Origin: Obrimoposthia wandeli
Taxonomy: Eukaryota
DNA: 64,000 nt
Reading direction: 5' to 3'
NCBI GenBank assembly: GCA_977020255.1
Contig: CDROCS010001806.1
Span: 372,001 to 436,000 of the forward strand
Positions 1-61,205 of this stretch are shown one piece after another. Position 1 is the stretch's first letter. Each line of letters starts with the position of its first letter. The translations under genes were made by a program, and so were the position numbers. The notes under the pieces are model-generated. The model had not been told where the DNA came from. It worked only from the letters and a program-made list of their open reading frames with translations, and did not search any database.

Positions 1-519
1 CACCAGGTAAGAGATACTTTGGTTGCTCAAAATATCAGATCGAAGAGTCCCACACAAGTCAATTTCTTTTGAGCGAGCAGCCCAACCTTTACGCTTATCA
101 TCATCATCATCATAACCTATACTCGACAAACAAGTGTCTTTAGTGTCTGTGCTATAGTTTAGTATGGTTTCAATCATAGCTTTTTGTGCATATTGAGGAT
201 GGGTTTCTACTACAGTATTATTCATTGTTATATCTATGCTTTTAAATAGGGAATGCATCAAGAAATTTGATGGGACCACATTATCTGCAACAGCTATTTC
301 TGTACCATCAGTTTTCGTTACTTTAATTTTCACAAACAACAAGGTATCATTCAAATCTAAGTACTCAATATCTGAACCTTGAATTTTAAACAGAATCTCT
401 GATGTTCTTGTTCCGGTAATATTGTTTGTTGGATATATATCTTCAAAGCTACCATTACTTACAACTACCTGGGGCAAAGCTCGATCAAAAATACATAATT
501 CAGATTTACCACAAGCCAT
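1..519 (-). CDS. Major capsid protein (double jelly-roll, hexon/PY), N-terminal 173 aa, open at window edge
   Basis: ATG at 519, 2 nt after the PZ stop. Manual translation MACGKSELCIFDRALPQVVVSNGSFEDIYP...EYLDLNDTLL...FEQPKYLLPG has no stop to position 1 and matches the element B ORF at 29548. Confidence 0.9.
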   Translation of the reverse strand, partial: MACGKSELCIFDRALPQVVVSNGSFEDIYPTNNITGTRTSEILFKIQGSDIEYLDLNDTLLFVKIKVTKTDGTEIAVADNVVPSNFLMHSLFKSIDITMNNTVVETHPQYAQKAMIETILNYSTDTKDTCLSSIGYDDDDDKRKGWAARSKEIDLCGTLRSDILSNQSISYLV

Positions 520-965: not shown

Positions 966-2135
966 TTATACCTGATCTATACAACGGACATGTATGGTAA
1001 GGGATACTTTTGCATTGTTGGAAAAACTTATTGGAACACCTGCATCGTTTCTAATATTAATTTCAATGTTTGAGATTACATTTGATGCTAAAGGGATATA
1101 CATGGGTCTGTATATTGCGATATTAACCGTGTCTCCTGGTGCTTTATTTTTATCTAACCATATAGATTTTAATAAGGGTATCATTTGACCTCCAACGTTT
1201 ACAGGTTCACACAGACTAGAATACAAGTACATGTGATCAAACTCGTAATTTAATCGAGGTAGTCCAGACCCGTTGCCCGTAAATCGTGATTTATCTAACC
1301 CTAATACATACATTAAACGTTGATCAAATCCAATATGCTCAATTCCATTCTTTAATACAAATTTTATTAGCTTATCATTATCATCAATATAAAATCTTTT
1401 AAATATGACGTCGCATTTAGATTTAATGTATGCTACTAATGCATTTACATTATTATTATTTAAATCTTCTGTAAATACAATTTTCTTGTTGTATGAACCG
1501 GTTTTATAATGCATATATTGTAAATTATGTGCACTGCAATCAGGTCTGATAGACGTTGATCCAAGTAAAACTCCTTTATCATCAGACTCGAAACCTTCTG
1601 AAGTTAATGTATTGAAAATGAATCCTAATTCATTTTTAGCGTCAGCATCCATCTTGATATAGAATTTTTTGTTGTTGACGGATTTTATTAGTACAACATT
1701 ATCCTTTTTATCAATACCTACACCAACTGTGCTTAAGGAAATAGAAAGCTTTGCAATCTTATCTTTAGACGTGACGGTGAGTTTTGATATTTTATTAATT
1801 GTCTTTTTAATAACTTTTGGTTCTGATTTATCACCATGCAATTGCGGTTCTTTCTTTTCTACTTCTACTTGAGTATGAATTACTGATAAAGATATTTGAT
1901 CAGTCTGTTGATTGGAGAATTTAATAGAATAATTAATTTCACTGCCCTTATTTAAAATAACAGGAGTGTTTGTGTACGTAAATTCAGTTAATGCCGCCTC
2001 CCATTTACCATTTAACGTAATTGGATTCTTCCAATCTACAGTGAATAATGAAGCCATATTATTAGGTTGAGTTTTCGGACAACTATTACTCGGTAAAATC
2101 ATATAGAAGTCTCTATCTGGCTTGCTTTGATCCAT
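966..2135 (-). CDS. Minor capsid protein (penton/PX)
   Basis: N-terminal FYMILPSNS...W.AAL.E and C-terminal YLYSSLCEP..VGG..IPLL...MYIPL...I.NIEINIR motifs typical of Polinton minor capsids. Confidence 0.85.
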   Translation of the reverse strand: MDQSKPDRDFYMILPSNSCPKTQPNNMASLFTVDWKNPITLNGKWEAALTEFTYTNTPVILNKGSEINYSIKFSNQQTDQISLSVIHTQVEVEKKEPQLHGDKSEPKVIKKTINKISKLTVTSKDKIAKLSISLSTVGVGIDKKDNVVLIKSVNNKKFYIKMDADAKNELGFIFNTLTSEGFESDDKGVLLGSTSIRPDCSAHNLQYMHYKTGSYNKKIVFTEDLNNNNVNALVAYIKSKCDVIFKRFYIDDNDKLIKFVLKNGIEHIGFDQRLMYVLGLDKSRFTGNGSGLPRLNYEFDHMYLYSSLCEPVNVGGQMIPLLKSIWLDKNKAPGDTVNIAIYRPMYIPLASNVISNIEINIRNDAGVPISFSNNAKVSLTIHVRCIDQV

Positions 2136-3133
2136 GTTGATTCAGAATATCCATGCCACTTTACGAGATATTGTTTATTCTTACCACGGCCTTTAGATTT
2201 TACGACTTCTTGGATACGGAAAAGTGTAGGTTTATCAATTACTTGTAGTTCAGGTTCATAAAATTTCCCTGTTATTACATTACAGTCATCATCAACTATA
2301 GAGTACATTACAGGATTTGCACGTTTGTCTATTTTCTCTATCCTAAACACTTCATCACTCCAATTCTGATCAAAGTTTTTAATAAAGGGGCTACCACTAA
2401 ACTTTGATATCCGAACATAATCACCAGTCTTATGTTTGGGTTTATTAACTTTATCGACTTGATTACGACTCAACCAAATTTCCATTGCATTTTTATCATT
2501 AATATCGACAGGTCTCAATCCGTCTAAACCTCTATGCTTACTGTGATTGTATGAAGTCATTACTTTTGGTAAAACGTCAACCCATCTTTTATTGCCTTGT
2601 GCAATAAAATGTCTTTTTAATCGATCTCTCAATGTTCTATTAAACCTTTCAACTAGGGCAGCTTTGAATTGTGAAACTACAGAGTAATGTTCAATATTTA
2701 ATTTTTTAAATAAACTACCTACATTTTTGTTGTAAAACTCTTTACCCTTATCAGTTTGCACATGTATGGGGACAGTTTTATCAGTCATTATACTTAGAGC
2801 AGCCTCTATATCCTTACCTGATTTAGATTTTACAGGTAATGCACGCGCATACCTTGTAAACACGTCAATACATGTTAAAATATACTTGTTACCATCATTG
2901 ATACTTGCATATGGTATCATTTCCATCAAATCGGCCTGCCATAAATCGTTAGGACCGCTTGTTCTGTATGCTCGAGTCGGGAACTTCCGCTTCATTGGCT
3001 TGTTTAGACTGTATGCTAGCTGATTGCTCAGCCATTTCTGAGTTTTCTTTTGAGTCGATTGACTTTTTAATGATAGTTTGCCAACGCCGCTGTACCCAGC
3101 TGGGTTTTCGGGATCGTACCATATCGTTTCCAT
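2099..3133 (-). CDS. int: Retroviral-like DDE integrase with C-terminal chromodomain-like segment
   Basis: WQADL, QTDKGKEF and ERFNRTL catalytic motifs; C-terminal YLVKWHGYSESTWI. Confidence 0.95.
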   Translation of the reverse strand: METIWYDPENPAGYSGVGKLSLKSQSTQKKTQKWLSNQLAYSLNKPMKRKFPTRAYRTSGPNDLWQADLMEMIPYASINDGNKYILTCIDVFTRYARALPVKSKSGKDIEAALSIMTDKTVPIHVQTDKGKEFYNKNVGSLFKKLNIEHYSVVSQFKAALVERFNRTLRDRLKRHFIAQGNKRWVDVLPKVMTSYNHSKHRGLDGLRPVDINDKNAMEIWLSRNQVDKVNKPKHKTGDYVRISKFSGSPFIKNFDQNWSDEVFRIEKIDKRANPVMYSIVDDDCNVITGKFYEPELQVIDKPTLFRIQEVVKSKGRGKNKQYLVKWHGYSESTWIKASQIETSI

Positions 3134-3184
3134 TACAACAAGTGAATTTAAAATCGATGTTTGGTATGTTATTACCCATTTTGT

Positions 3185-3858: not shown

Positions 3859-4509
3859 TTAACAAGTAGATAGGCTTTTCTTTTGTTTATATACAAAATC
3901 ATTATTGAAAATATCGGTTCTCACGCGTAAATCGTCTGGACATTCCTGTGTAAAATCTAAAAACAAGTATCCATGAGGGTTAGTTGTAGCATCTTGAAAT
4001 GCGTCAATCAAATATTGCTTATTACAAGGGAAAGCTTGACGGGCAACAAAGTCGATAACCGTTTGATCTCGCGGATTTTTAAATAATACTAGATAATGTA
4101 CATTTAAATTCCGAGTACGGTGTTGACCGCCTTGATGAAAGAGATTTTGAGTGATAAAAATCACTGTTACATTTCTATGTCTAGCTATTTTGGTAAACAG
4201 GTTATTAAAACCCGACTCTTTATTTGCTTCATCAAACAAATCATCAATTACAATGACATCTCCTGAATTTAACCTCTCAGACCATTTATTATCAAAACCA
4301 TTAATAAAATGAATACCCTTCAATTTACCTAATTCTGTTCGTGTTAGACCAGATTCACCTACACCTCCGTAATGCCAGTATATTCTACTAAACTTTTGAT
4401 TAAACATGTTTTTATTTTGAAGTAATTTAGTTACAAAATGTGTTTTCCCACTCCCACTAGGTCCTACTATTTGGTAAACCGCGTTATTTTTAAGTTTTAT
4501 CATCATCAA
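3859..4509 (-). CDS. Genome packaging ATPase (FtsK/HerA, A32-like)
   Basis: Walker A GPSGSGKT, Walker B VIVIDDL, ARH...VIFITQNLF motif. Confidence 0.95.
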   Translation of the reverse strand: MMMIKLKNNAVYQIVGPSGSGKTHFVTKLLQNKNMFNQKFSRIYWHYGGVGESGLTRTELGKLKGIHFINGFDNKWSERLNSGDVIVIDDLFDEANKESGFNNLFTKIARHRNVTVIFITQNLFHQGGQHRTRNLNVHYLVLFKNPRDQTVIDFVARQAFPCNKQYLIDAFQDATTNPHGYLFLDFTQECPDDLRVRTDIFNNDFVYKQKKSLSTC

Positions 4510-4536
4510 TAATAATAAATCAAAAGAAACGATTGT

Positions 4537-4803
4537 TTATATACGTTTTATTAATATATACAACAACAGAGAATTAAAAATTGATGCAGAAAAGGTTATA
4601 TACATCATGTTTGAACGATTAATTTGAACAAATTTTTCAAAATCCTTAATCCGTTTGATATCTCTATAGACATGGGTGCAAACAATTTCCTTTATATTAT
4701 TACGAGAAAGTCCATCAAAACTAGAAAAGTATTGAACTCCATTTATTGTTCCGTTTATAATTTCCTCGACTGCATCATCAACTAATTTATCGTTTTTATC
4801 CAT
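4537..4803 (-). CDS. 88-aa hypothetical protein with C-terminal hydrophobic segment
   Basis: ATG-started ORF packed between IAP and ATPase; ends YITFSASIFNSLLLYILIKRI. Confidence 0.55.
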   Translation of the reverse strand: MDKNDKLVDDAVEEIINGTINGVQYFSSFDGLSRNNIKEIVCTHVYRDIKRIKDFEKFVQINRSNMMYITFSASIFNSLLLYILIKRI

Positions 4804-4821
4804 TTATATAAATCATAAATT

Positions 4822-5721
4822 TCAATTGTTTATATCATGAAATTTTACATTTCTTACTCTCCGTTCGATCAGACATCTGCATACTGGACATGAATGTAAC
4901 ATTCTAGAACATGATATACATGTATTTACATGTCCACAAGGGAGAAATACTACTTCAATATGATTATTTAAACATACTACACATTCAGGTACCTTTAAAA
5001 TGTATGAAAGTATATTTATATATTGTTTTTCAGGTTTCATTTCTAAATTAGATAAATCACAAAGCAATTCAAATAGTGAATTGTATTCACCATATCGCAT
5101 CATTTTATATTTTAAAACAGATTTTATTCTATCTTTCATGAAAAACTTTTTCAAATATCTGATTTGGTTTGTATCCATCAACATATCGAATTTCTCAATA
5201 GTCAAAGGATATTCAATTATACAATCTGTTTCGATTTTCTCAATAACATTAGCCTCATTATAAAGTCCTAAACATTTTGAATAGCATATATCAGGTAATT
5301 TTACATCAATATCTGATACATGTACTTTTCCAATCAATGGTGATGTATCAAAATCGATTTTCTTGTCCATAGTTTCAATTATTGGCACATTTGAAACATT
5401 TAACTTTAAAAGAAATGGACATGTAGGAAAAAATTTCATATGTTGCTTCATTGGTTTAAGATACCATTCCCATTCGGATAACGCACCTTGACAGTATATA
5501 CATTTTACTTTATCGGTTGAATCATCATCATGTTTATAAAATCCGGCTTTAGCTAAATCATTTACAGATTGTTTCCCTTTAAAATTTATAATTAATGATC
5601 TTAATCTTTCACTTTCACGTCTATATTTCCAATGTAAAACTTTCATTCTAGAATAACCTACTTTTCGTCTAACTAAAACATCATCAACAGTTGTATAATG
5701 AAGTATATAATCAACTAGCAT
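4822..5721 (-). CDS. iap: Inhibitor of apoptosis protein (one BIR + C-terminal RING)
   Basis: BIR: LAKAGFY...DKVKCIYC...W...H..FFPTCPF. RING: CVVC...FLPCGH..TC..C...L.SCPVCR. Confidence 0.93.
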   Translation of the reverse strand: MLVDYILHYTTVDDVLVRRKVGYSRMKVLHWKYRRESERLRSLIINFKGKQSVNDLAKAGFYKHDDDSTDKVKCIYCQGALSEWEWYLKPMKQHMKFFPTCPFLLKLNVSNVPIIETMDKKIDFDTSPLIGKVHVSDIDVKLPDICYSKCLGLYNEANVIEKIETDCIIEYPLTIEKFDMLMDTNQIRYLKKFFMKDRIKSVLKYKMMRYGEYNSLFELLCDLSNLEMKPEKQYINILSYILKVPECVVCLNNHIEVVFLPCGHVNTCISCSRMLHSCPVCRCLIERRVRNVKFHDINN

Positions 5722-5762
5722 TTCAAATCATGTAAGAATAAAATTCAACTAAAATTTATTGT

Positions 5763-6259
5763 TTATATCAAAAGTAAAATATCAGTTATTATCAAAGTCA
5801 CATCAAAGTGATAATCCAAATCCTTGAGACCGAGTATGACCACTTTCCCGCTTGCAAATATGTTGACGCACAGAGGATTGTGTTTTGTAAACCTTAAAGC
5901 AGGAAACAACTCAGGTTCGAACATGCATGCAGCTCCACACTTTTGAGACAACTTGTATAGGTTCACCTTCTTACCTAAATCGACAGTAACCGTTACTGAT
6001 TGAATACGATCAATCTTTATTCTAAATGGACACTTGAGCAAAGTTGTAGTAATAGGTTTCTTGCAACCCATTATCCTGCATGCTCCTAATAATAACTAAC
6101 TAACTAACTAACTAACATAAAAAACATACCTGAACGGAAGATTATAAGGGTATAATCCTTACACCTGTGCACGTACTGACATGGTTTCCCGGTTTTGAAG
6201 GGTAAGTGACTGATGTCTCCTTTAACTTTACCTTTATAATTAATATTTGCAAGATTCAT
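5763..6259 (-). CDS. Minimal two-repeat TATA-binding-protein (TBP)-like protein, 150 aa, two exons
   Basis: Exon 1 6259-6130 (43 codons +1), GT-AG intron 6129-6086 (44 nt), exon 2 6085-5763. Spliced product has IIFRSGACRIMG (repeat 1) and FEPELFPALRF...VNIFASGKVVILG (repeat 2), matching TBP YEPELFPGL...LIF.SGKVVLTG. Confidence 0.88.
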
Positions 6260-6360
6260 GATTGAATTGATGGAAATAACCCAATCTATATATAAAATTT
6301 TTAAGCTAAAGATTATCCAATCAGAATCGAGTATGATATATATATATAAGCTACCACTTT

Positions 6361-7035
6361 TGGTATAGAATTCATTATTTTGATATAAACTCTAAACAAA
6401 CTAAATCTCTTAAGTTCGAGAAGCCACCACCAACAAGGCTTACAGGCACAGATGTGGATACCGATGATGATGATGTAGTTTTTATATCAAAACCAAAGAA
6501 GCAAACTATGACAAGCAACAACCATAAACAAACCAAGACTATCAAGATTGAGAAGCAAGCAACAAATGAGGATCTCTTTATTGATGATATAGTCTCTACA
6601 CCTAAACATAAGAAACCGTTCAACAATAAACCATCAGATGTAATATTTGAGTCTAACGATTTGAAGTATACCAAGCCGGTTATGTTTTATAACTGGCAAA
6701 TGAATTTTTTGAAGACTCCAATCATATATGGATTCATGTTTCCGGTGGCTCTGAATAAGTCAAAATACGATTTCAAGATACATAGATTAAATCCGTCAGA
6801 TATTGATGATCTTAACAAAACTTTTGAGTCGATGCATCTCAACATCATAGTTGGGAATCATATAATAATTCGAGCTGATCCTAATCTTTTCAAGCGAGAT
6901 CACGACTTTAATGTTGACAATATGGGAACTGGACTCAAGTGGATGATCGTCATTTCAATACAGGGATACAAAATCAACTGTACAGGTCTTCATAAACCAA
7001 TCTGGAAAATTACTGATGGACAAGTTCGCTTATAA
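6361..7035 (+). CDS. Conserved hypothetical Polinton protein divergent from the TBP-like gene; start uncertain
   Basis: Frame is open from 6337 (after TGA at 6334-6336). Repeated peptide KQTKSLKFEK / KQTKTIKIEK supports coding upstream of the listed GTG at 6454. Two homologs in element B (25420-26352). Confidence 0.7.
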   Translation, partial: WYRIHYFDINSKQTKSLKFEKPPPTRLTGTDVDTDDDDVVFISKPKKQTMTSNNHKQTKTIKIEKQATNEDLFIDDIVSTPKHKKPFNNKPSDVIFESNDLKYTKPVMFYNWQMNFLKTPIIYGFMFPVALNKSKYDFKIHRLNPSDIDDLNKTFESMHLNIIVGNHIIIRADPNLFKRDHDFNVDNMGTGLKWMIVISIQGYKINCTGLHKPIWKITDGQVRL

Positions 7036-7262
7036 TTGTACTAATATATATTTATCGATGTTACTTTGCTTTCTTCAATATAGACTCCTACTATAAACAA
7101 AAACGTTTCTTAAGATAAAAACTGCGATAGCTGTCCGGTTATGCGGGGCAGTCTAACTCCTGGAATGAGGTCGCAGTACTAAGTAAATGAAATAGTTGCA
7201 AATAAAAATTTGGGACGGTCAATTATGTTTAATTTCAAAATTAAAATTTTTTAATTTCAAAA

Positions 7263-7420
7263 NNNNNNNNNNNNNNNNNNNNNNNNNNNNNNNNNNNNNN
7301 NNNNNNNNNNNNNNNNNNNNNNNNNNNNNNNNNNNNNNNNNNNNNNNNNNNNNNNNNNNNNNNNNNNNNNNNNNNNNNNNNNNNNNNNNNNNNNNNNNNN
7401 NNNNNNNNNNNNNNNNNNNN
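7263..7420. other. Assembly gap (158 N)
   Basis: Run of N bases. Confidence 1.
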
Positions 7421-7534
7421 AGTTTTTTAATTTTAAGTTTTTGAAATTTGAAATTTTTAAACTATATACAAATGTTACAAAATATTAACCTACATAATCG
7501 TAAGTGACGCATAAGTCCAAACAAATTTCGAGAC

Positions 7535-7696
7535 GTAAAGTGTCGGTTCTAAAACAATAGCACACAGCCCCCCGAACAAGGCACAAGGAACAAAGCACAT
7601 CTGTATGACTAATCAAATTTCAGATGTGCTTTGTTCCTTGTGCCTTGTTCGGGGGGGGGGGCTTTGTGTGCTATTGTTATAGAACCGACACTTTAC
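7535..7696. repeat. Long near-perfect inverted repeat (fold-back/MITE-like)
   Basis: Arm 7535-7603 is the reverse complement of 7621-7696 apart from a few mismatches and a longer G run; 17-nt spacer. Confidence 0.9.
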
Positions 7697-7699
7697 ACT

Positions 7700-9070
7700 T
7701 CTCGGTAGTTCGTTTGTTTCCTTGTTGTCTTGAGTTTTCTTCGTTGACGGTTTTTGTGAAGTAGGTTTTAGTTAATATTGTTCTGTCTTTGCAGTCTATC
7801 ATAAAGTTGTGTTTTACAAGGAAATCGGATCCTATTATCAGTTGGGATACGCCCGCGATGATAAAATTCCATTGGTATGCTGTATTACTTATAATTAAAT
7901 TCTGTTTTGTTTCGCCGTACGTTTTGATTGTGGTGTTGTTTGCTGCGATGAGGCTAATGTAATGTGAGTGGTATGTCTTAAAATTTTGTTGAATGCATAG
8001 TGTATATGGTTTTAGTGATAACGATGAAATGGAATCTATTAAAAATTGATATGTGGTGTTGGATGGTTGCACCTTGAAAGTGGAATTTATACCGTCTTAT
8101 AACGGTGAGTTTATTCGTTTTTTGAAATGAACACGGTGCTACACATTTATATGGATTGTTTCCGTAGGTTTTATGGTAGTAACACATGTTTCGTTGTGAA
8201 GCTTTTTTCGATGTGTGTGGTGCATTAAATTTGAAGTGAGGTGAATGAGTTATCCGGTGAAAAGGTGGTGATTGATTTCTCTGGTGATGTTCAGGTGCTT
8301 GGTTTTTCTGGTTGAAGTGAGGTGGTTTGTTGTGGGTTGGATGGTAGTTTGAGTGAGGTGGTTGATGTCTGTTAGATGGGGAGTTGTTTCTGGAGTTATG
8401 TCTCTGGTTAATGTTTCGATTATTAAGAGTGATTTCCCTAAGGAGTTTGTTGATGACTGATGGCTAGTAATATTGCATTTTGGTGAGTGTCTTCGTTTTG
8501 TGGTGGGTGGCTGATGTGATTGGTCTCAGTGTGGACTCTGTTATGGTGGATATTGTCAGCTATTTCAGCTATTTTTTGAATATCGATGATGTTAGTGGCG
8601 GTGATGATATATCTTGTGTTTTGTGGAAGAGTTTTGAGAAAGCATTCTTTCAGGATTTAGGAGAAGTTGTGTGCTTGTTGTGGGTCGATTTTAGAAAGTT
8701 GTTTTTTAAGATGTTTGAGGGTTTGTGATGGTGTGGTGTTTTCCTTTTTGGACGGGTTGAGTAGTTGTTCTAAAGCGTTTTTTGGCTACGTTTCCTCGTA
8801 TTTTGTTGATTTTATCTATTAGCTTTATTGTTGGGTTGTGGGGCTCAATATGTCGTTTATCTCTTCCGCTATATTTTTTAATTGTTGTGGCGGGCAACTT
8901 GTTAATGATGTGCATTGTTATTTTTATTTCGGTGTGTTTGTAGCTGGTTGTCAGAATATTGTGTGTTAGGTTTATCCAGTCTATAGGGTTGTCAATTTCA
9001 TCTACAAAATATTGTGGGGATTTTATGTGTAAAGGATGGTGTTTGTTCGTGTCTAGGCATTTTAGATCGA
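7700..9070 (-). pseudogene. Degenerate Ty3/gypsy gag-protease
   Basis: Gag-like ILKECFLKTLPQNTRYI, zinc knuckle CYYHKTYGNNPYKCVAPC, aspartic protease FLIDS...IIGSDFL; many stops and frameshifts. Confidence 0.8.
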
Positions 9071-9904
9071 GAACAGTTTATGACAAAAGTTTATGACGAT
9101 CATCATGTAGATATATGGTCAAAAGATCAGAGATTATGTTAAATGATGTATTAGGTGTAGTGAGATGATAGTGACAATGAAAATGTGAGAATTGAGAATG
9201 AGATTTGTAGCGGCAGCGTTGATTAGGACTTATTGATGTAGTACAAGATATGTTAAAGAGCAGAAGGATATGAATACAGACCTTTAAAAAACAGATAAAG
9301 GACACATTGAGGAGTATTTTTTATTTGAGGCCTTATCAGGATATGAAATTGTTGTTGTAGAATATTGTGGGCCGTTGTAGTGTTTGTTTCTACTGACACC
9401 AATTTGTTGGGTTGGATAATTGTAGGAGTTGGAGATTAAACGAGAATAGAGTGAAGGCGACGAAGTAAACACATTGATATATTTTTTGTATTTCAATTAT
9501 TTTTAACTTTTCAAATTTTCGTAGGGAGGCTACTAATTACATTATCCAAACATTGGACTTAATTCAATTATCATCGATTAGGGATAATTATAATTAACAT
9601 TAATAATAAAAAAACATCAAATACAAATATACAAGTAACACAAAAAGAAAAGAGAGGTTGCAGGGGAAACATATCATAAAAATATATAACAATATATAAC
9701 AATATATATTAAAAAAATATATAACAATATATAATATATATATATATATAATACACATAAACTCATTTTTAGATTCAAATAATATAGTCAACTATAAACT
9801 GATCATTTCCGTTTGATTATTGTCCTGATCAAGGCTTTATGATTTATTATTATTTATTTCAGTTTGTTTTAATGATTTACTTTTTTGCTCTATGATAAGT
9901 TTTT

Positions 9905-11050
9905 AATGATCAACACTTTGGTTTTAAGAATATTCATTCTTCAAATCCTTCTCTGCCACCATTTTATCCTTAAATTTCCTGAATCACACTCTTAAATTTA
10001 TTAATAAATAATAGATGATCAGGAGGATAAATACTAGTGTCAAGAAACTCATCATCAATCATATCTTTAAGTAATATATTTTGATTTTCATTATGAACTT
10101 CAAATAAAAATGAATCAATGTCCATTTGATACAATCTTTATTTGACAATTAAATTGGTTCCTATATTTAACACATTTAATATATTGAAGCTGATACATTC
10201 TCAACTTTGATAGGACAGTTGTATATAGTCGATTAAGACGACTTCTTTTTCATATATATTAAATTTAATTCACCATAGATATTTCGGAACCAATGACTTG
10301 ACATAATTTAACTAATCTTCTATCATTATTATATAGCCGAATATCACTGCTATTTTCAATTTCTCTAATGTTTTACATTAGATTAAGGCTGTTTCAACGA
10401 ATTCATATTAATGTATTCCTTAAACTTTAAAAATCATGAAAGTATTATGTTTTGTTTCTTATTCTCATGAGTTAACAGTAACTTTTAACTTGAGAACTGC
10501 GAGAGCCCTGTTTGATTGGTTCGATGGCTTATTCATCAAGGAAATCATGAAACGGTTTTGGCATATGAAAGTCAATTTCAAGCAAAAACTCTCATGCTTC
10601 CTTAATAAGATGTATCATTTCCCTGGATATGGTTCCAGATCAAATATTCAATTGGTAAATGTTGGCTCAATGTTTAATCATATAAATGATTAATGTCTAT
10701 ATAAAGCAGTGATGTATCTGATGAAGTTTTACAATAATATTTGCTAATAAATATAATATATTCACGAATACCTGATTCAAATATGTTATACATTTCTGGA
10801 AAATGGTAAAATTCAATTTTATTTTCAAAAGATTTGATAGCACCCGACCAACTCAAACTAGGAATACAATAAATATCCACGGCATTCACCTATTCTAATT
10901 TATTTTCTAAATTCTTCAAATACATCACATAATAAATATACATCATGATTCATATATTCCAACATATAATTCTTCAATGTTTGATAATTTAATTTACTGT
11001 ACATTATAATGGTCTTATTATACTTATCATTAGATTCATCACTACCATAC
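9905..11050 (-). pseudogene. Decayed Polinton protein-primed DNA polymerase B fragment
   Basis: EMYNIFESGIR...LLYIDINHLY and FLDTSIYPPDH...GKFKD...LKPKC motifs. Confidence 0.75.
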
Positions 11051-11920
11051 TTATATGACAAAACCGAAATGTACATTAGACTTGGTGCTAAGCTAGATTT
11101 TGTCTATTGAGCAATTCAGTTTGCACAAACTAATGTTTTTTCTAAATACATTGAGGATAATTCGGCGAAACAAGCTGCAGCCACAACACATTTCGAGAAA
11201 GATAAAGAATTAACCTTCGGATTTGTAATACTCCCTAAAAACTGATTACCTATTGTAGTAAAGCTCAGTTTCGTACGACTATTGAAATTGATACTGACCT
11301 TAGTGCTATTCTACTGAATAAGGAAAATGTCGTTTTGAATTGTCTTAGTTACTTTGGCCAGACGGTTTTGGATTGAGGCAAATTGCACATTTATGAGGTG
11401 CCGTATATGCAGTTGGAGAAATATACAGCACAATTTAGCTACGATATGAGAATAATAGCAGGTGAAACAGATAGCTTTTTCTTTAGCGTAATAATTTAAT
11501 GTAAAACTGTAATAATATAATGCTACGATTGTTGATGGGTTGTTAGATACCTCGAAGTTTTCAACAAATCAATCGCTCTATACTATACTCAATACAGTGA
11601 CAGGTAAATTTAAGGATGAGAGCAAGGAATTGTTTAGCTAAAGACAAAGGTTATTTCTACATCCAAAATCATAAAGCTTAGAAACTACAAAATGAGAATC
11701 GCAGGTAAAAGTTATAGATATTAGACCCCTTTACGTACGCTAAATACTTGTCAATTTTCGAGAATGGAGTAAGCGAGCGAGTACAATAACAGTGCATAAT
11801 CTCGATAAATCATAAGCATTTTACTATTCCAATGAGTAGAATGGATTTGAGTAGTGCCGATAATAAGCATAAGTGGGTAGAAAAGAATCGATAAGTTGTG
11901 ACACTCACGTTTTATACCCC
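11050..11920 (+). pseudogene. Second decayed pPolB fragment in opposite orientation
   Basis: YIRLGAKL, FSKYIEDNS, RIIAGETDSFF, LLDTS...GKFKDES motifs, parallel to the element B PolB. Confidence 0.7.
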
Positions 11921-12129
11921 GATGAAAATGTTTAATCTTTTCATTTGTCTAATCAGGCTTGTAGAGATTTTATTATGATTTTCTATAATGTAGTTTTGGA
12001 TTATTTTATTTTTGTGTTGGAATTATTTAGTTATTATTTTAAATAAGATTTGAACAAATTTAGAAAATTTATTGAATTTTGAATTATTAATACCAATCTT
12101 ATTTAAAATATACATACACACATACATAA

Positions 12130-12960
12130 ATTGTTTATTTACACCTTTACCTTTAGATTTCAAGAATTCTTGAATTCTATATACCCCAGGTTTATCAATT
12201 TGCTGTAATTCTTGTTCGTAAAACGTACCATAAATTTGATTTTATCATCGTCTGTATTACTATACATTATTGGATAATCTTTTTTATCAATACTTAATAT
12301 TATAAATACCTCACCACTTAAATTTGGATAATTTTTTTAATAAATAGAGATCTGCTTAATTTAGATATACGAACATAGTTTCTAACATTATACTTTGGTT
12401 TCTTTTCCATTTTAATTTCATTATTTTGTTCAATATATAAATCAAATGATGTTGCATCAATCGATTTTCTATTGTTTAAACCACTATTATGTGACAACAT
12501 AAGCTTATGTAATATACCAAACCATTTCTTATTAACTTTAACTGGAAAGCTTTTCTTGAGTTTATTCCTTAATGTACAGTTAAATTTCTCAACCAATGCA
12601 GCTTTGAATTGAGAAAATACAGAAATGATTAAAACTTAGTTTATCAAATAAACGTTTTTCATTTTTATTATAAAATACCTTACCCAAATCAGTGTGAATA
12701 TTTGTAAGAAAAAAATCAACAACTTTTGTTTCCATAATATCTTTTGCCGACTTTGACTTTACTGCCAACTTTAAGTAGAATCAGTGTACATAATATGAAG
12801 TGTTTGCTGAATGAGAGCTCAAATCTGAATCCATGAAAATATCTATGGCATCCCTTATGCTTTATCCTAACCGATACGGCTCCATTATCTAGATTTAAAA
12901 GTCGATCGAAATTTAGAATTGGAGAATAGTGAAAGTTATTATTACGTCCAGGCAAGATTA
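12130..12960 (-). pseudogene. Decayed Polinton integrase (remnant C)
   Basis: IHTDLGKVFYN, FSQFKAALVEKFNCTLRNKLK and YVRISKLS segments align to the element A integrase. Confidence 0.8.
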
Positions 12961-15159
12961 ATTTGACCGAATCCCTCCATCTTTACTCCTGTAAATCACA
13001 TATAATAAAGGTTTTCTAAAATATTTCTTCTGTTAAATTTACTGTGTTAAATATTATATTTGAATACATCAATGCTCAAGTTATTCATGTGTTAAAATCT
13101 AGATATAATAGTTAATTTAACAAAAATCTCTATACCATGATAATGCTATTCATGTAAAAGTATATTTTCGCGCATGCTCCTGTCTTCAGTAATTACATTC
13201 CTTTTTTAAGATGACCAACATGATATACAGGAAGCAAATGTTATCATTATTCTGTCCGTTAACAATGGAACATGAGAGTTGGAGAGATCTGGGTAAAGGA
13301 ATGTATGAGCTCCTAAACAGATAAATCATGTCAGTGAATTTCGTTTAAACAAAGCTCACTTCGTGTAATCTACCCGGGGCCCATCCACTACTTAATTTGC
13401 TATAATTAACTTTTGTGTTCATCGACATTTCTCTCATTTACAAAGTTATCATATAAACTATTAATTTTTTGAAAATTATCCACCTTTTAAATTCATATTT
13501 AGTATTTTAAAATTATAATGTTGTGCAAAATTGAACATAAGCCTTCTCTAATATGATCACATCAGATTTTAAATATTTTTTATTACCAACGGCCTCTTTA
13601 TTATAATATATTTATCATTTAAATGCTACTCAAGTTGTAGGATAGTTCAGTTGATTCAGGAGATGTATGAAGTTTGGGTTGATACAACACTTGAATCAGT
13701 TTTTTATTTTCCTTTTAATTTGATCGTGTTTGACAGAATAATTTCAAGGCTTCAACGTATAAGTCTAAACGACTGAAATATGACTCTAAACGTGAGATGT
13801 TTGTACATTTCAATAAAGGTACAGCAACGCATTAAAGCTATAAAATAAAACTTTATAATAATCCTAACCTGGCAGGTCACTAGACCCTACTCCTGTAAAA
13901 ATTCATTGTCGAAGGCCTATGTCTGAATATCTGAATAATTAGACAACGCTGATAGTAGATTTTACATTGATTTATCATATTATTTTCCAATAACCAAATT
14001 TTGTTTTGACACTCTTGTTATGAGCAAGTATTTAATTTATGGAAATTCACATTTTAGGTATTGAGAATCGTAAAATTAACAGACTGTCAGTGTTATGCTT
14101 ATCGAAAAAAAATTCAAATTAATTCAAATTATTCATGAAAATCGTATAAATAATTAATTTAGAACCCAGCCATAAAAACGATTTACTTAATCGTAACTGA
14201 TCGATATTGAGTATTTACATTCGTAGCAGTTCTCGATTTATGTCCACCTCAAAACATAGATTAGGTTCAAATAAAATTAATCGAACTATTTCCAACAACT
14301 TCATTAGCCGAATGCAGCCTTAAAGCTGAATCCCAGATACTAATTGTGGAAAAATAAAACTGCTATTAAGCTGGCGAGTAAATCAGATTTGCTGAAAGTT
14401 TTCAGCATTGATGGCTTCCTGGAGTATGCCAACAATTTCAGCGGGGAAAATAATGCGAGTGTTGCCTGATGCTGGATGGTTATGTGGAGCGGCAGATGGT
14501 TGAGTGAGTTGGATGCTCGAGTCAGCTCGGATTGACGGCAGTCTGCTTCAGTTCGTTCCGGAATTGGTAGCGGCAGTGCGAGTAGGAGTCTACATCAAGT
14601 TGTCATATATACAGTCAATGACGTTGGTAGACAGAATCAGAGACTGTAATGAAGTGTGGTACTCGTAACACTTGCAGAATTTTGGCGTCTCATTCACGTT
14701 TTCAGATGGCCAGTGTGGAAAAACAGTGATATTACATTCTCATTACTAGTTTAATGAGAACAAGAAACTGGAGTATCGTCAAAACAGTAATTCTGGTCTA
14801 ATTAAGAAAAACTATTATGGATTTTTTAAAATAAAATATGGCTTTATCAAATATACAGATTTAGGCTAATAATATTATTAAATCGTTATTAAACATGTGA
14901 ACAACTTCCTTTTTCGTGTTTTTATTTCTAAAATATGTATAAAAATTAAAGAAAACACACTTGTGTTTTGTTAATATCGAAATATTTTGTCAATTATATT
15001 TAGCCCTATTTACTTAAAATTTCTTCCTCAATTTTCATGTAAGTTTTCAATAGTATCTCAATCAAAGATCCCATTTGTCCGGCGCCCCACAATAATGCAA
15101 ACACATTTGAAATTGCTGGGGTTTCTATTTGAAACTCTTTATTGAAGCAGATGCTCGTA

Positions 15160-23216: not shown

Positions 23217-24229
23217 TTAAATTTTAACTAATTTTATAAATTTCACTACCTCATCCAAAATTAACTTTAAAGCAACAAGTATATTTGTAGATGCAAGTGC
23301 CTCCCAGTGAATAATATTGTAAGTACTAGTGCATCTTGGTACAACATTATTTATTTGTGTCCCACCCCAGATAATTTTCTGATCATCGCCTTAGTGCATC
23401 AGTGCAAATATATGCTTTATTTCTTCTATATAAATATATGTACATGGTGACTTTTTCATTTAACAACATCTTCTGTACATGATTTTATCATCACAATGAC
23501 CAAAGATTATAAAAGTAAAATAATACGCGACAAAAGGCTTACAAAAGCAAAGAATTTAAAATTGTAGTAGAAAATGAAAGTATTTGTGATTTGTACGGGG
23601 AGAAATTGTTGATATCATTTATATTCGAAACGTTTGTAACAAAATCTATAAATTACATGGTTTAAAATTAAACGTATTTTGTAAAGCTACAAGATATGTA
23701 CAAGATAAAATTTATTTAGATAAATCGCAGTCTCGTTTACTTAATCGATTTAATTCGATTGGATTATTTCCATCAACTACTTTCAGACGATGAAATCGTT
23801 TGACTAAATATCTATTTATTCTGTTTGTTAGATAATCCACTTTGTTTCATATCGGTCTCATTTTAAATACATAATGTTTAGGAAACAAAATATTGTCAAC
23901 ATTCATAATAGCTCTTTAATTACGAATTCTTTATTGCAATTTATGAAAGCTTCAAATTCAATAAAATGAATATACATTTTAATTCAATTTATTTTATTGG
24001 AAATTGTTTATATTTGTGATTCCATGCCACTTAACTAGATATTGCTTTTGCTTTCCGAGCCCTATTGTCACTATTTCTCGAATTCTATATATTTAAAAAC
24101 ATCATATACTTACTCGCGTTAAAACATATCAAACATATTATATAAAGATAGAAAAATATATTTGATGCATTACAATTATTATACATAATACCATCTACAT
24201 AGTCTTGATCAATGTAATTCACTTTGAGA

Positions 24230-24930
24230 TTATTCAGTTGCTCCTTGTCTGGTCGTCTGTAATCTCTGATGAACCATGGTGTGTAATACTCGCAATTTCT
24301 CTATTAAACATAAATAAAGTTCGAATATTATATACTTGAATTCTAGGCTTTGACGACAATACTTGTAGATCTTCATGATAAAACTTATCACCAATTTCAT
24401 TATTTGTTTCATCTTCAATGAAATACATTACTGGGGTATGATGTGTATCGATTTTAGTTATTTGGAAAACCTCATCACTCTAATTCTCTTTGAAATTCTT
24501 TATAAAATAAGTAGTACTAATTTGAGACATTCAAACATAATCTCCAATCTCATATTGCGGTTTCTTTACAACCTACTTCTGATTACGCTGCCACCAAATT
24601 TCCGGTGCATTTTTTAATCAGAAATGTAAATTGGTATCTTTCCTAGCTAAGCTTCTGTGTGGACTATGATTATATGCTCGTATTATTTTAGGTAATTTTC
24701 CCCCATGTATTTTCCTCCCCTTCAGTGAAATACGTTTTCAATCGATCTCTCAATATTCGATTAATTCGTTCAACTAAAGCGGCTTTATATTGAGAAAACA
24801 CATAATAATTATTAATACCATGTTTCTTCAATCAGCCGCTAACATGTTTATTGTAAAGCTCCTTCCCTCTATTGGTTTAAAAATTAATTGGTTTCACATC
24901 TGAAAGTAATTTTTGATCCCTTTCAGTGCG
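24230..24930 (-). pseudogene. Decayed Polinton integrase (remnant D), truncated next to element B
   Basis: NRGKELYNKHV...FSQYKAALVERINRILRDRLK and KFYHEDLQV segments. Confidence 0.8.
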
Positions 24931-24979
24931 ACAAAGACCTGATTTAAACTTAAATGGCATAGCTCTTTAGGGGGTATAC

Positions 24980-25082
24980 CACTGTCCTTTAAAACCGTTT
25001 ATGTGAGTGGAGTGAAATTTCGTGCATATGTGTTGAGTGAAATTCCATGTATGTGTGTGGAGTGAAATTCCATGCATGTGTG
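24980..25082 (+). repeat. Left inverted repeat of element B with internal ~24-bp subrepeats
   Basis: CACTGTCCTTTAAAACCG..TGTGAGTGGAGTGAAATTTCGTGCAT matches the reverse complement of 38811-38876. Confidence 0.8.
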
Positions 25083-25869: not shown

Positions 25870-26352
25870 TTAAAACATAGGGATATGAGCACGTTCAATT
25901 TTCCACATAGGTAGCTTTGTTCCAATTTCATCTTTCTTTTAACAATAAAGCCGAATTGTTTCCGTCCATTGCTTCTTTTTCGTACACGCATCTACATCTA
26001 TTTCTTTTCAAAAGTAATCTAAAAATGCTGTATCAGCTCCTCAGATATAAAATTCGTTCTAATTGAATGTAAAATTTGGAACTGCTTTTTCAAATTTCTG
26101 TTTAAGATATTGGAAATCTGGTTTTTGAATATTCGATAGATAATAGCTAAACTTTCTTTTTTCAATTGTCACAGGATTTACTAAAGCAATCAGTTGAGCC
26201 TTCTTCAAGGAACTGACTTTGTATTTGAAATATTGTTTCACTTCTTCATATATATTCTTATCCGAATCTTCAAACATTTCTAAATATTCATCATAACTTA
26301 ATATCCGTCGGCTATCGTCCATCATTGATAATTGTCTTTTATATAAATGCAT
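25870..26352 (-). pseudogene. Homolog 2 (tandem paralog) of the element A 6361-7035 ORF
   Basis: LVNPVTIEKRKFSYYLSNIQKPDFQYLKQKFEK...GADTAF...KLPMWKIERA aligns with the same A protein. Confidence 0.6.
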
Positions 26353-26596
26353 TTCTTATGATTTGTCCTCCATTGGCGCATTCTTTTATACTAATTTGTA
26401 ACAAAGACATGAATCTCATTGTTTAATATAACTAAAGCATTGATTTTGATTGGACTAAATCCATATTAAAAATTGAAATTGAAAATTTATATCATCCAAT
26501 TATAATAGGTTTGCAAGATATTTACAAGAAATTTGCAATAAAAAAGCACGTTCAGACATGTATAAAGAATAATTTGTCGAAAACAATTTTAGTCTA

Positions 26597-27078
26597 ATGA
26601 AACTCATAAATATAAATTATAAAGGAAAAATAGAAGATGATACTTTGTACTTGCCATTCAATTATTGAAAGCCGAGACAATATGTAAAACATTTTGATGG
26701 ATTCACAGTTGTTATTTTCCCTCAGGTTAGTTTTTATTTTATTTTATTGAGTTCTTTTAGGAAGTTGTCATGTAATGTGATGCAAAACACCATTAAATGA
26801 GTTCAATTTACCATTTGGAATTCAAATCAGCGCCATACAATCTATACAAATTTCAGCTAATCTCGGGAAAGAAATAAATCTTTATAAAATTGCAGAGAAA
26901 ATGAAAGAAGTATGCATGTTTGAAATTAAAATTTTTCCTGCACTCAGATATTTGAAGTTTACAACGCTGTGTAAATATATTTTCCAGTGGTAAAGTTATG
27001 ATATTGGGATTGAGAAATATTTATTATCCAGACACTGTTGGATCGAATTTAGAAAATATATTTTATTACATTTGTTAA
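26597..27078 (+). pseudogene. TBP-like gene of element B, with intron 26726-26760 at the same position as in A
   Basis: MKLININYKGK...KPRQYV...VVIF.SG | GT-AG 35 nt | SCHVM*CK...CMFEIKIFPALRY...NIFSSGKVMILGL; two in-frame stops and two frameshifts. Confidence 0.88.
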
Positions 27079-59785: not shown

Positions 59786-61205
59786 CTGAACATCACAAAA
59801 ATCACATATGTAAAATATTTTTATTTCAAACAAAACGCGAGATTCCATAGTAAATATAAATATATACAATCCCTAGAGCTACCAATGAAATTCAATTGCT
59901 ACATAAACTTTAAATCAAACCATTATTTACCAAATAAATGGATTAAAAAGATTCTAAATAAACTAATTTGTATTAACTTGAGAAACGTATACTGAAATTA
60001 AATTTTTAGGGATTTAAAAATGTAAATACAATTTTACCATATATAATATATGAATTATTTTTGAAAGCATAAACGTTTATGCTACTGCAAAATAACGGTA
60101 GTATGAATGAATGTGTCAGTAACCTCTTTATTTTATAAAGCTACAATAATTGATTTTGTAAATTAACTAATTTTTAACACATTGAACCAAACATTCAAAA
60201 AGCAATTTAAAGAATGTTTCTCTAGAAACCATTACACCAATTAGGAAAAAGTTCATAATATATATATATTTATAAAACTTGTTCGTTGTTATTGAAGAAA
60301 GTATTTAATTCCTTTGTATCATCAGAAAAAACGTTTATTTAATTTGATACACATTTAGAATATATGTAAAACTTTTATGTACGATTTTTAAATTTCCAGA
60401 TATATATTCTATTTTTGAACAAGCAATTCTTAAAAACGAACTTAAAAATTTCAAAATTTATCCAAAAAATATTATTATTTTAAAATTTAAATGCATAGTA
60501 AAAATAAAACTTAGTTCATTATTCGAGTTTTCATTCTCAACTATTTTATGTGAAATCGGTCAAATAACAATACATTGATCATAAGTTTCAGGTGTTTTAA
60601 ATGAAACTTTTCAAAAAATTTAAAATCTAAAGTAATTTTCATTGTTTGTCGATATCTTTAATGCTATAATTAGATTATTTAAACATATCAAAATACAAAA
60701 AGTATACAAACTTAATTTTTATTTATTTTCATTCTTGTAATTAGATTTAGCATGAATATATATAATTTTCATATCTTTAGCAAAATTAATATTTTATTAA
60801 AAATACCATTAGAATAATAATTGTTTAAGATTAATATTAGTGAACAATAAAGAATCAATATATTTTATACTATTATGATGATCATCATTAATAATTAGAG
60901 CCATACATTTCTCGCTAGATTTATGTATATTATAATTTATTTTACTCTTCAAGTTTGAGTATTTCAGAATGTGATGCATGTCATAACACATCAAATTGTG
61001 ACATACAACAAATAATGTTGGCGTCTTTGAATATTGACGATTAAGATTGCATTTATTACGAGCTGCATCCCTATATTTACTGCTAATATGATCAAAATCG
61101 CAAATTTATTAAGGTTATTTCTTACACAAGAGTAGATAGATGTGTCCAGTTCCGTTCAAACCGGGGGGTCTTTGTTCCGAAGTGCCACATCTACCTACTG
61201 ACTTG

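Follow-up and report, generated by a model that had tools for sequence, protein, structure and literature searches.

Our combined findings suggest that a Polinton in the genome of Obrimoposthia wandeli is expressed in two steps. [quoted passage not shown] The Polinton is 15.2 kb long; it starts ~7.5 kb upstream of the window (64 kb of contig CDROCS010001806.1, the whole stretch of DNA analysed here) and ends at position 7702. Near that end lies a block of four open reading frames (ORFs), at 6508-7035(+), 5763-6071(-), 4822-5721(-) and 4537-4803(-). The block sits where an initial annotation had placed it, between the right terminal inverted repeat (7081-7702) and genes of the ATPase, integrase and capsid type, and its virus-like organisation was likewise borne out. 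By comparison we established the spliced structure of the TBP-like gene, the family to which it belongs, its co-divergence with the ATPase, a box at fixed spacing before other genes and the absence of this box before TBP genes.

In the proposed mechanism, host RNA polymerase II (Pol II) and host TBP would start from canonical TATA tracts to transcribe the TBP and SSB genes, which lie back to back. Once made, the element's TBP would bind TATAAACA, and its retained stirrup would recruit host TFIIB. A second wave of transcription by host Pol II would follow, in which the packaging and structural genes and, in the window's family, also the polymerase, integrase and IAP genes would be activated.

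We counted 12 occurrences of ATAAACAA along the coding strand of the element in the window. Of these, nine are found just upstream of consecutive genes, eight of them at 30-45 nt, while the ninth is 55 nt before the integrase and 9 nt before a small overlapping ORF; the other three lie ahead of the likely polB leader, within the capsid frame and in the terminal repeat. In and beside the block, the TATAAACAA box precedes the IAP gene (5759-5767(-), 45 nt ahead of the start), the small ORF (4826-4834(-), 30 nt ahead and inside the end of the IAP frame) and the ATPase (4533-4541(-), 34 nt ahead), with further boxes beginning at 3891, 3550, 3189, 2179, 970 and 561. We compared 38 copies of the element, picked by capsid-side DNA from 40, with the window copy and one already in the set omitted. 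The boxes before the IAP gene and the small ORF were identical in 36/36 and 37/37 copies, and each of the nine boxes checked was invariant across 35-38 copies. The distance from box to ATG was held even where the box lies inside the upstream frame, as for penton and capsid.

The same spacing was found in relatives. After near-duplicate upstream regions were removed (from 59 to 49 for ATPase, PW (core-protein) and capsid genes, with integrase, penton and orf135 excluded, and from 72 to 56 for TBP genes), ATAAAC was present 25-60 nt before the ATG in 40 of the 49 genes of the first group (mean 1.8 and maximum 5 after shuffling) versus 2 of the 56 TBP genes (Fisher p = 8e-18). The longer ATAAACA, which was the top 7-mer in an unbiased count, preceded none of the 56 TBP genes, and canonical TATAWAWR preceded 21 of them, compared with a shuffle mean of 2.4. 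A gene-blind count over 31 metagenomic contigs of at least 3 kb gave a similar picture: 69/173 ATAAACA sites and 64/129 TATAAAC sites preceded an ORF at box spacing, in close and distant clades alike, whereas six control words did so in 3-7% of cases and the background in the window's flank was 25/1452.

The initial annotation had recognised a TBP-like ORF at 5763-6071(-). The assignment held (Pfam TBP, E 2.9e-13), but this ORF is merely the second exon of a spliced gene of 150 aa. Exon 1 (6130-6259(-); family profile E 1.9e-14) codes for a shortened first TBP repeat and has no Pfam match by itself. It is followed by a 44-nt, phase 1 GT-AG intron (6086-6129(-)), predicted from genomic comparison, and by exon 2 (5763-6085(-); PF00352, E 2.9e-13), which holds the end of repeat 1 and a complete repeat 2 with the EPELFP stirrup and matches solved TBP structures with E down to 5e-13. 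Repeat 2 was assigned by Pfam and solved structures; for repeat 1 the assignment came solely from the family alignment and common motifs. The joined product has no extra domains. The intron ends, GTATGT..TAG, are kept in 36/36 copies while the length varies from 35 to 44 nt; a GT..AG gap occupies the same position in families E, F and G and in a second element of the window, element B, and in families C and D the gene is intronless, with both repeats in one frame. The exon-2 peptide was found at 100% identity in at least 149 of 150 scored places of the genome. In four sequencing runs, cover over the TBP intron and the spacers was even and thus DNA-like, with the intron skipped as a repeat. Between the TBP and SSB genes, a putative shared divergent promoter region (6260-6384, no strand) contains CCAAT words at 6281 and 6317 and TATA tracts at 6287-6294 and 6337-6350; the canonical TATA tracts lie 35-42 nt upstream of the two genes. 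No p53-type element was found in this region or in the terminal repeat.

A search of the protein collection with the intronless TBP gave 50 candidates, of which 43 proved to be relatives, mostly of 145-155 aa. We assembled a set of 81 TBP loci, keeping 80 of 98 qualifying metagenome loci. Polinton core genes were found beside TBP in 34/81 loci, and in 22/31 of those of at least 3 kb; the compact TBP family adjoins Polinton core genes both in this genome and in metagenomes. TBP and ATPase distances were correlated over 21 elements (rho 0.74, 0/2000 permutations). The window's TBP is ~29-32% identical to two host TBP-family ORFs, versus a median of 53% to the TBPs of other elements. With these identities and the co-divergence with the ATPase, we rejected a recent capture of a host TBP.

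The protein retains three intercalating phenylalanines (F39, F98, F114), where the TBP family is recognised by four, and most outer helices of repeat 1 are gone. We take the first repeat-1 phenylalanine to be replaced by a K-P-x-Q loop, on a mapping of positions that is partly assumed. On the DNA face, R and M are fixed (82/82 each) at positions occupied by V and T in host repeat 1, N is present in 83/84 element TBPs where cellular repeat 2 has L, and Q68 (82/84) and F39 (75/77) are also conserved. The seed patterns used to collect the family did not include R, M, Q68, S69, N4 or F39. That DNA-face changes are fixed while three phenylalanines are kept suggests that DNA binding is under selection. 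We presume the roles of these positions from TBP structures, except for V203/L205, a pair that PMC1636458 places at base pair 2. The fixed polar or bulky changes would suit a C at position 7, and the TBP-like protein would bind and bend TATA DNA and recruit TFIIB. According to PMC1636458, the yeast TBPm3 mutant disfavours C at TATA positions 6-8, which fits the need for a dedicated reader of TATAAACA but is no proof of it. If the two-step reading is true, the element's TBP is expected to prefer TATAAACA, with its C at position 7, over TATAAAAG. Repeat 1 measures ~42 residues up to the R-x-M-G strand in compact members versus ~50 in distant ones. Six of the distant loci (L120, L123, L127, L128, L130 and L133) have the longer first repeat, yet the R-x-M-G strand and the box are present, which suggests that the change of specificity preceded the shortening.

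Among known systems, herpesvirus viral TBPs offer a functional parallel. KSHV (Kaposi's sarcoma-associated herpesvirus) ORF24 reads TATTWAA late promoters (PMC12529657), and the likeness would consist in a virus-encoded TBP fold and a variant TATA on structural genes, with early genes that keep promoters of host type. However, ORF24, UL87 and BcRF1 have a Pol II-binding N-terminal domain, a C-terminal DNA-binding extension and vTA partners, whereas the Polinton protein is a bare 150 aa. The proposed resemblance is one of function and not of family membership. Poxvirus VITF-3 and African swine fever virus (ASFV) pB263R are also reported as viral TBP-like factors that serve stage-specific promoters. 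Both work with a virus-encoded RNA polymerase in the cytoplasm; the Polinton, with introns and no encoded RNA polymerase, must use the host nucleus. Cellular TBP and TRF (PF00352) share with the Polinton protein the two-repeat saddle, by sequence, the EPELFP stirrup and three of four phenylalanines. They are only ~30% identical to it, and the Polinton protein has no N-terminal domain, a shortened repeat 1 and fixed DNA-face substitutions.

Polintons, Mavericks and adintoviruses (PMC8502044, PMC6431247) resemble the window's element in their ~15 kb length, terminal inverted repeats, 6-bp duplication and polB-type, integrase, ATPase, protease-like and capsid-type ORFs. They differ in that no description of a conserved compact TBP, an SSB or an element-wide promoter box was found in the text searched. 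In the accessible text of PMC8502044, TBP is a mere figure-legend label on MELD viruses and related elements. The words TBP, TATA and promoter were absent, by word search, from the 2026 PLV framework preprint and the coral polintovirus paper, and in the open literature, mostly not at full-text depth, we found no published Polinton TBP with its own promoter box and no published Polinton SSB. As context, BIR domains occur in planarian Burro retrotransposons (PMC6431247) and planarian Polintons are PIWI-silenced (PMC8532177). We see the pairing of a compact TBP with a box used across the element as a new variation on a known viral strategy. More tentatively, we propose that a widespread Polinton clade may have evolved, independently of herpesviruses and giant viruses, a one-protein switch in which a minimal re-tuned TBP and a private TATAAACA code form an orthogonal TBP-promoter pair and run an early-to-late cascade of lytic type. 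If true, viral TBP systems would gain a very small example, one that is also a naturally occurring TBP of altered specificity and shows how the TATA code can change. A TBP of their own with a matching box also opens staged expression to direct tests in animal Polintons, whose standing as true viruses with a staged life cycle is debated.

Several observations weigh against the two-step reading. Every element examined for the box was chosen for having a TBP. TBP-less control Polintons were sought in viral contigs by means of the ATPase, an ATPase alignment and a capsid alignment, which yielded four remote ATPase matches only; the box preceded 0/82 ORFs in these four contigs and one TBP-bearing non-Polinton contig, all of them too distant to serve as a control. 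A strict TATA at the tested spacing was lacking before 35/56 TBP genes, the TBP tree had little support (1/20 branches starred), and the seed patterns contained E96, F98, N112 and F114, so that conservation at these positions is partly by construction. The spacing of the box is looser for orf135 and penton in relatives; the integrase is separated from its box by a small ORF, and the K-Q-Y codons of the integrase often form part of the penton box. The division of genes also varies: polB and the integrase stand behind the box in the window's family, while polB has a canonical TATA in families C and F, and in family F (L023, L025) the SSB gene has several ATAAACAA boxes and the IAP gene, located ahead of TBP, has a canonical TATA, an arrangement opposite to that of family A, to which the window copy belongs. 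Finally, TATAAACA is still TATA-like, one base off canonical TATA, and fits what we take to be the forkhead consensus, RYAAAYA, so a host factor could read it.

This last point leads to the rival that survives best, namely that the box is a promoter read by host TBP/TRF or forkhead factors and that the element's TBP acts otherwise, for example as a TFIIB decoy or a repressor. The host has TBP-family genes of its own, and the lost outer helices and unusual DNA-face residues could mean that DNA binding was lost. Set against this are the fixation of those very residues with three phenylalanines kept, the exclusion of ATAAACA from TBP's own promoter and the narrow spacing, which suits a core-promoter element. 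We therefore consider the host-factor alternative unlikely, although it deserves serious attention, and retain the reading in which the element's TBP is the reader of the box.

The gene divergent to TBP was found at 6508-7035(+) as first annotated, but its frame in the window, open from 6337, is 5'-shortened relative to the 218-aa ORF of other copies. It is predicted to be an OB-fold SSB of the T7 gp2.5/Enc34/ASFV CP312R type. A model built from a 26-sequence alignment reached a pLDDT of 91.7 (31.7 for a single-sequence model), and its top four structural matches among 48,161 chains were T7 gp2.5, DUF2815, ASFV CP312R and Enc34 SSB (Z 6.3-6.9, root-mean-square deviation 2.8-3.5, 102-117 of 125 residues aligned). 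Foldseek gave CP312R with a probability of 0.75 (E 0.47) and, among viral models, seven matches at E<=0.001, mostly from giant viruses where named, as well as a baculovirus DNA-binding protein at E 0.015. The modelled protein shares the OB fold and conserved aromatic and basic positions with the gp2.5, Enc34, DUF2815 and CP312R proteins, but identity is 6-12% and no profile matches. The family comprises 117 representatives at 50% clustering, has conserved aromatic and basic columns (90 rows aligned) and lies near TBP, in tandem or divergent orientation, in 19/81 outside loci. Against the SSB call stand Z scores below 8, the lack of a sequence-level link to known SSBs in word-based homologue, Atlas, Pfam and solved-structure profile searches, and the acidic C-terminal tail, a feature of gp2.5-like SSBs that only 2/89 relatives have. 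On the strength of the model, the protein would serve strand-displacement replication, and the call fills a gap in how such elements may carry this out. A ATAAACAA box is also found at window position 6524(+), inside the 5' part of the SSB frame.

The initial annotation had combined the four genes into one cassette for host takeover, with transcription hijack and apoptosis block in a nuclear virus stage. Some observations speak for this: the block is intact in 35/38 copies of the family, the IAP-like gene retains the full set of zinc ligands and has a counterpart of 41-46% identity in a second abundant family (F), and IAP and Bcl2 homologues have been reported in adintoviruses (PMC8502044). 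However, an SSB is a replication protein, so the divergent gene, if correctly modelled, gives no support for takeover, and the TBP-like gene goes with a promoter box on the element's own genes and not with host shut-off. A survey of neighbourhoods showed gene order and content to vary among families, with IAP after TBP in A and before TBP in F and no IAP found in families C, D, E or G or in element B. Outside this genome, 81 loci gave no BIR-bearing match and one RING-only match. The IAP-like gene (4822-5721(-)) codes for one BIR (E 1.9e-13) with CCHC zinc ligands, a weak UBA-like middle and a C-terminal C3HC4 RING (E 6.2e-11), which makes ubiquitin-ligase activity plausible by sequence. Its BIR reads WEWYLKPMKQH versus WESGDDPWVEH in cIAP1, such that the acidic DDPW groove of cIAP1 and NAIP is absent, and the family F orthologue carries the same change. 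The acidic groove of type II BIRs binds IAP-binding motifs (IBM); without it, classical caspase or IBM binding is doubtful. The IAP is sporadic, with two local families that carry it. We regard the takeover cassette as improbable.

The slot between TBP and the ATPase varies in gene content among elements and is empty in some. In the window's family it holds the IAP-like gene and a gene for an 88-aa protein (4537-4803(-)) whose C-terminal segment is hydrophobic (Kyte-Doolittle peak of 1.75, residues 67-85), both of which are optional passengers that stand behind the box. Families E and G contain relatives of the small protein (31-34% identity, E 1e-8 and 4e-6), also behind the box, and it gave no Pfam match and no convincing Atlas match. 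Its sequence makes it likely to be tail-anchored, and most likely it is a membrane-associated late protein. A role as a Bcl-2-like or other known death regulator was unsupported in the Pfam and Atlas searches. Overall, the initial interpretation is partly supported, and the block combines a likely transcription switch, a predicted replication protein and optional passengers. Accessory genes in relatives (L025:5480-6253, L097:222-719, L118:1709-2170, L134-L136) include a dual-specificity phosphatase (E 2.9e-11), a ubiquitin-conjugating enzyme (E 1.7e-12) and a RING-only protein, as well as paired ORFs that we take to be exonuclease-like.

That the box is instead a polyadenylation or termination signal of the upstream gene, as its A-rich sequence, its frequent overlap with the upstream stop codon and one copy that follows the SSB gene inside the terminal repeat might suggest, is very improbable, given that for the capsid and penton genes the stop codon of the upstream gene comes ~36 and 77 nt after it, that the gap between it and the downstream ATG is concentrated at 31-44 nt and that AATAAAA has no such pattern (7/224).

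The element carries the hallmarks of Polintons/Mavericks: terminal inverted repeats, AG..CT ends and a 6-bp target duplication, seen in three copies, among them that of the window. The right terminal inverted repeat is partly masked (no strand assigned) and ends in CT, directly followed by the duplication at 7703-7708. At least 40 matches of ~2.4-2.9 kb at 98-100% identity were found, the window copy counted, and family A is young and abundant. The whole four-gene block was present in 35 of the 38 copies; one copy extends past its sampled stretch, one ends inside the IAP gene and one is without the block. Frames were intact in 29/35 copies for the SSB-like gene, 35/35 and 35/36 for TBP exons 1 and 2, 26/36 for IAP, 35/37 for the small ORF, 30/37 for the ATPase and 26/35 for the integrase, with signs of purifying selection (pN/pS, the ratio of nonsynonymous to synonymous polymorphism, 0-0.38 from variants in at least three copies, with few changes). 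The block is therefore co-inherited within the family, as had been proposed, and belongs to the element; a separate insertion is ruled out, with all of it carried by 35/38 copies. Element B also keeps the divergent pair, at 26062-26355(-) for the SSB-like and 26597-27075(+) for the TBP-like gene. The pair (26062-27075) is decayed, belongs to an E/G family member rather than to the window's family and has no IAP match beside it.

Of the core genes, the A32-like packaging ATPase lies at 3859-4506(-) (Pox_A32, E 5.8e-7) and a retroviral-type integrase with a chromodomain at 2099-3133(-) (rve, E 2.6e-12; Chromo, E 3.6e-5). The polB-type ORF, of 1511 aa and upstream of the window, matched the ExoI, PolA and PolB motifs, a support at motif level, while the ExoII and PolC patterns were unmatched and a Pfam search returned Endonuclease_7 alone. 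The capsid-type ORF, of 407 aa in other copies and at least 400 aa in 26/38, is so labelled from a weak Pfam Capsid_N match (E 0.003), its size and its position; two further searches were without match. In the window this gene (1-519(-)) has a frame-changing indel relative to 37/38 other copies, so the capsid gene is broken in the window copy. A further frame is presumably protease-like, judging from a motif, and has an apparent tiny first exon that overlaps the capsid stop.

Some minor features were also observed. The small ORF at 2949-3182(-), which has an MG start and a CC motif, runs across the integrase start in a different frame and has no Pfam match; MG...CC starts recur ahead of the integrase in many relatives. 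The polB gene has an apparent spliced leader, with a short first coding exon behind a TATAAACAA box, at ~8200-8560 in L002 and in the same region of L013, and a 73-nt piece that is 89% like the terminal repeat (window 7121-7193) lies inside the 5' part of the polB frame (L002 7955-8026). In a neighbouring Polinton of another family (L001 ~6840-8120), polB is interrupted by mitochondrial-gene-like ORFs, presumably cox2-like. Decayed Polinton fragments (polB, integrase) are found elsewhere in the window at 9880-13600, 23970-25000 and 60800-61100.

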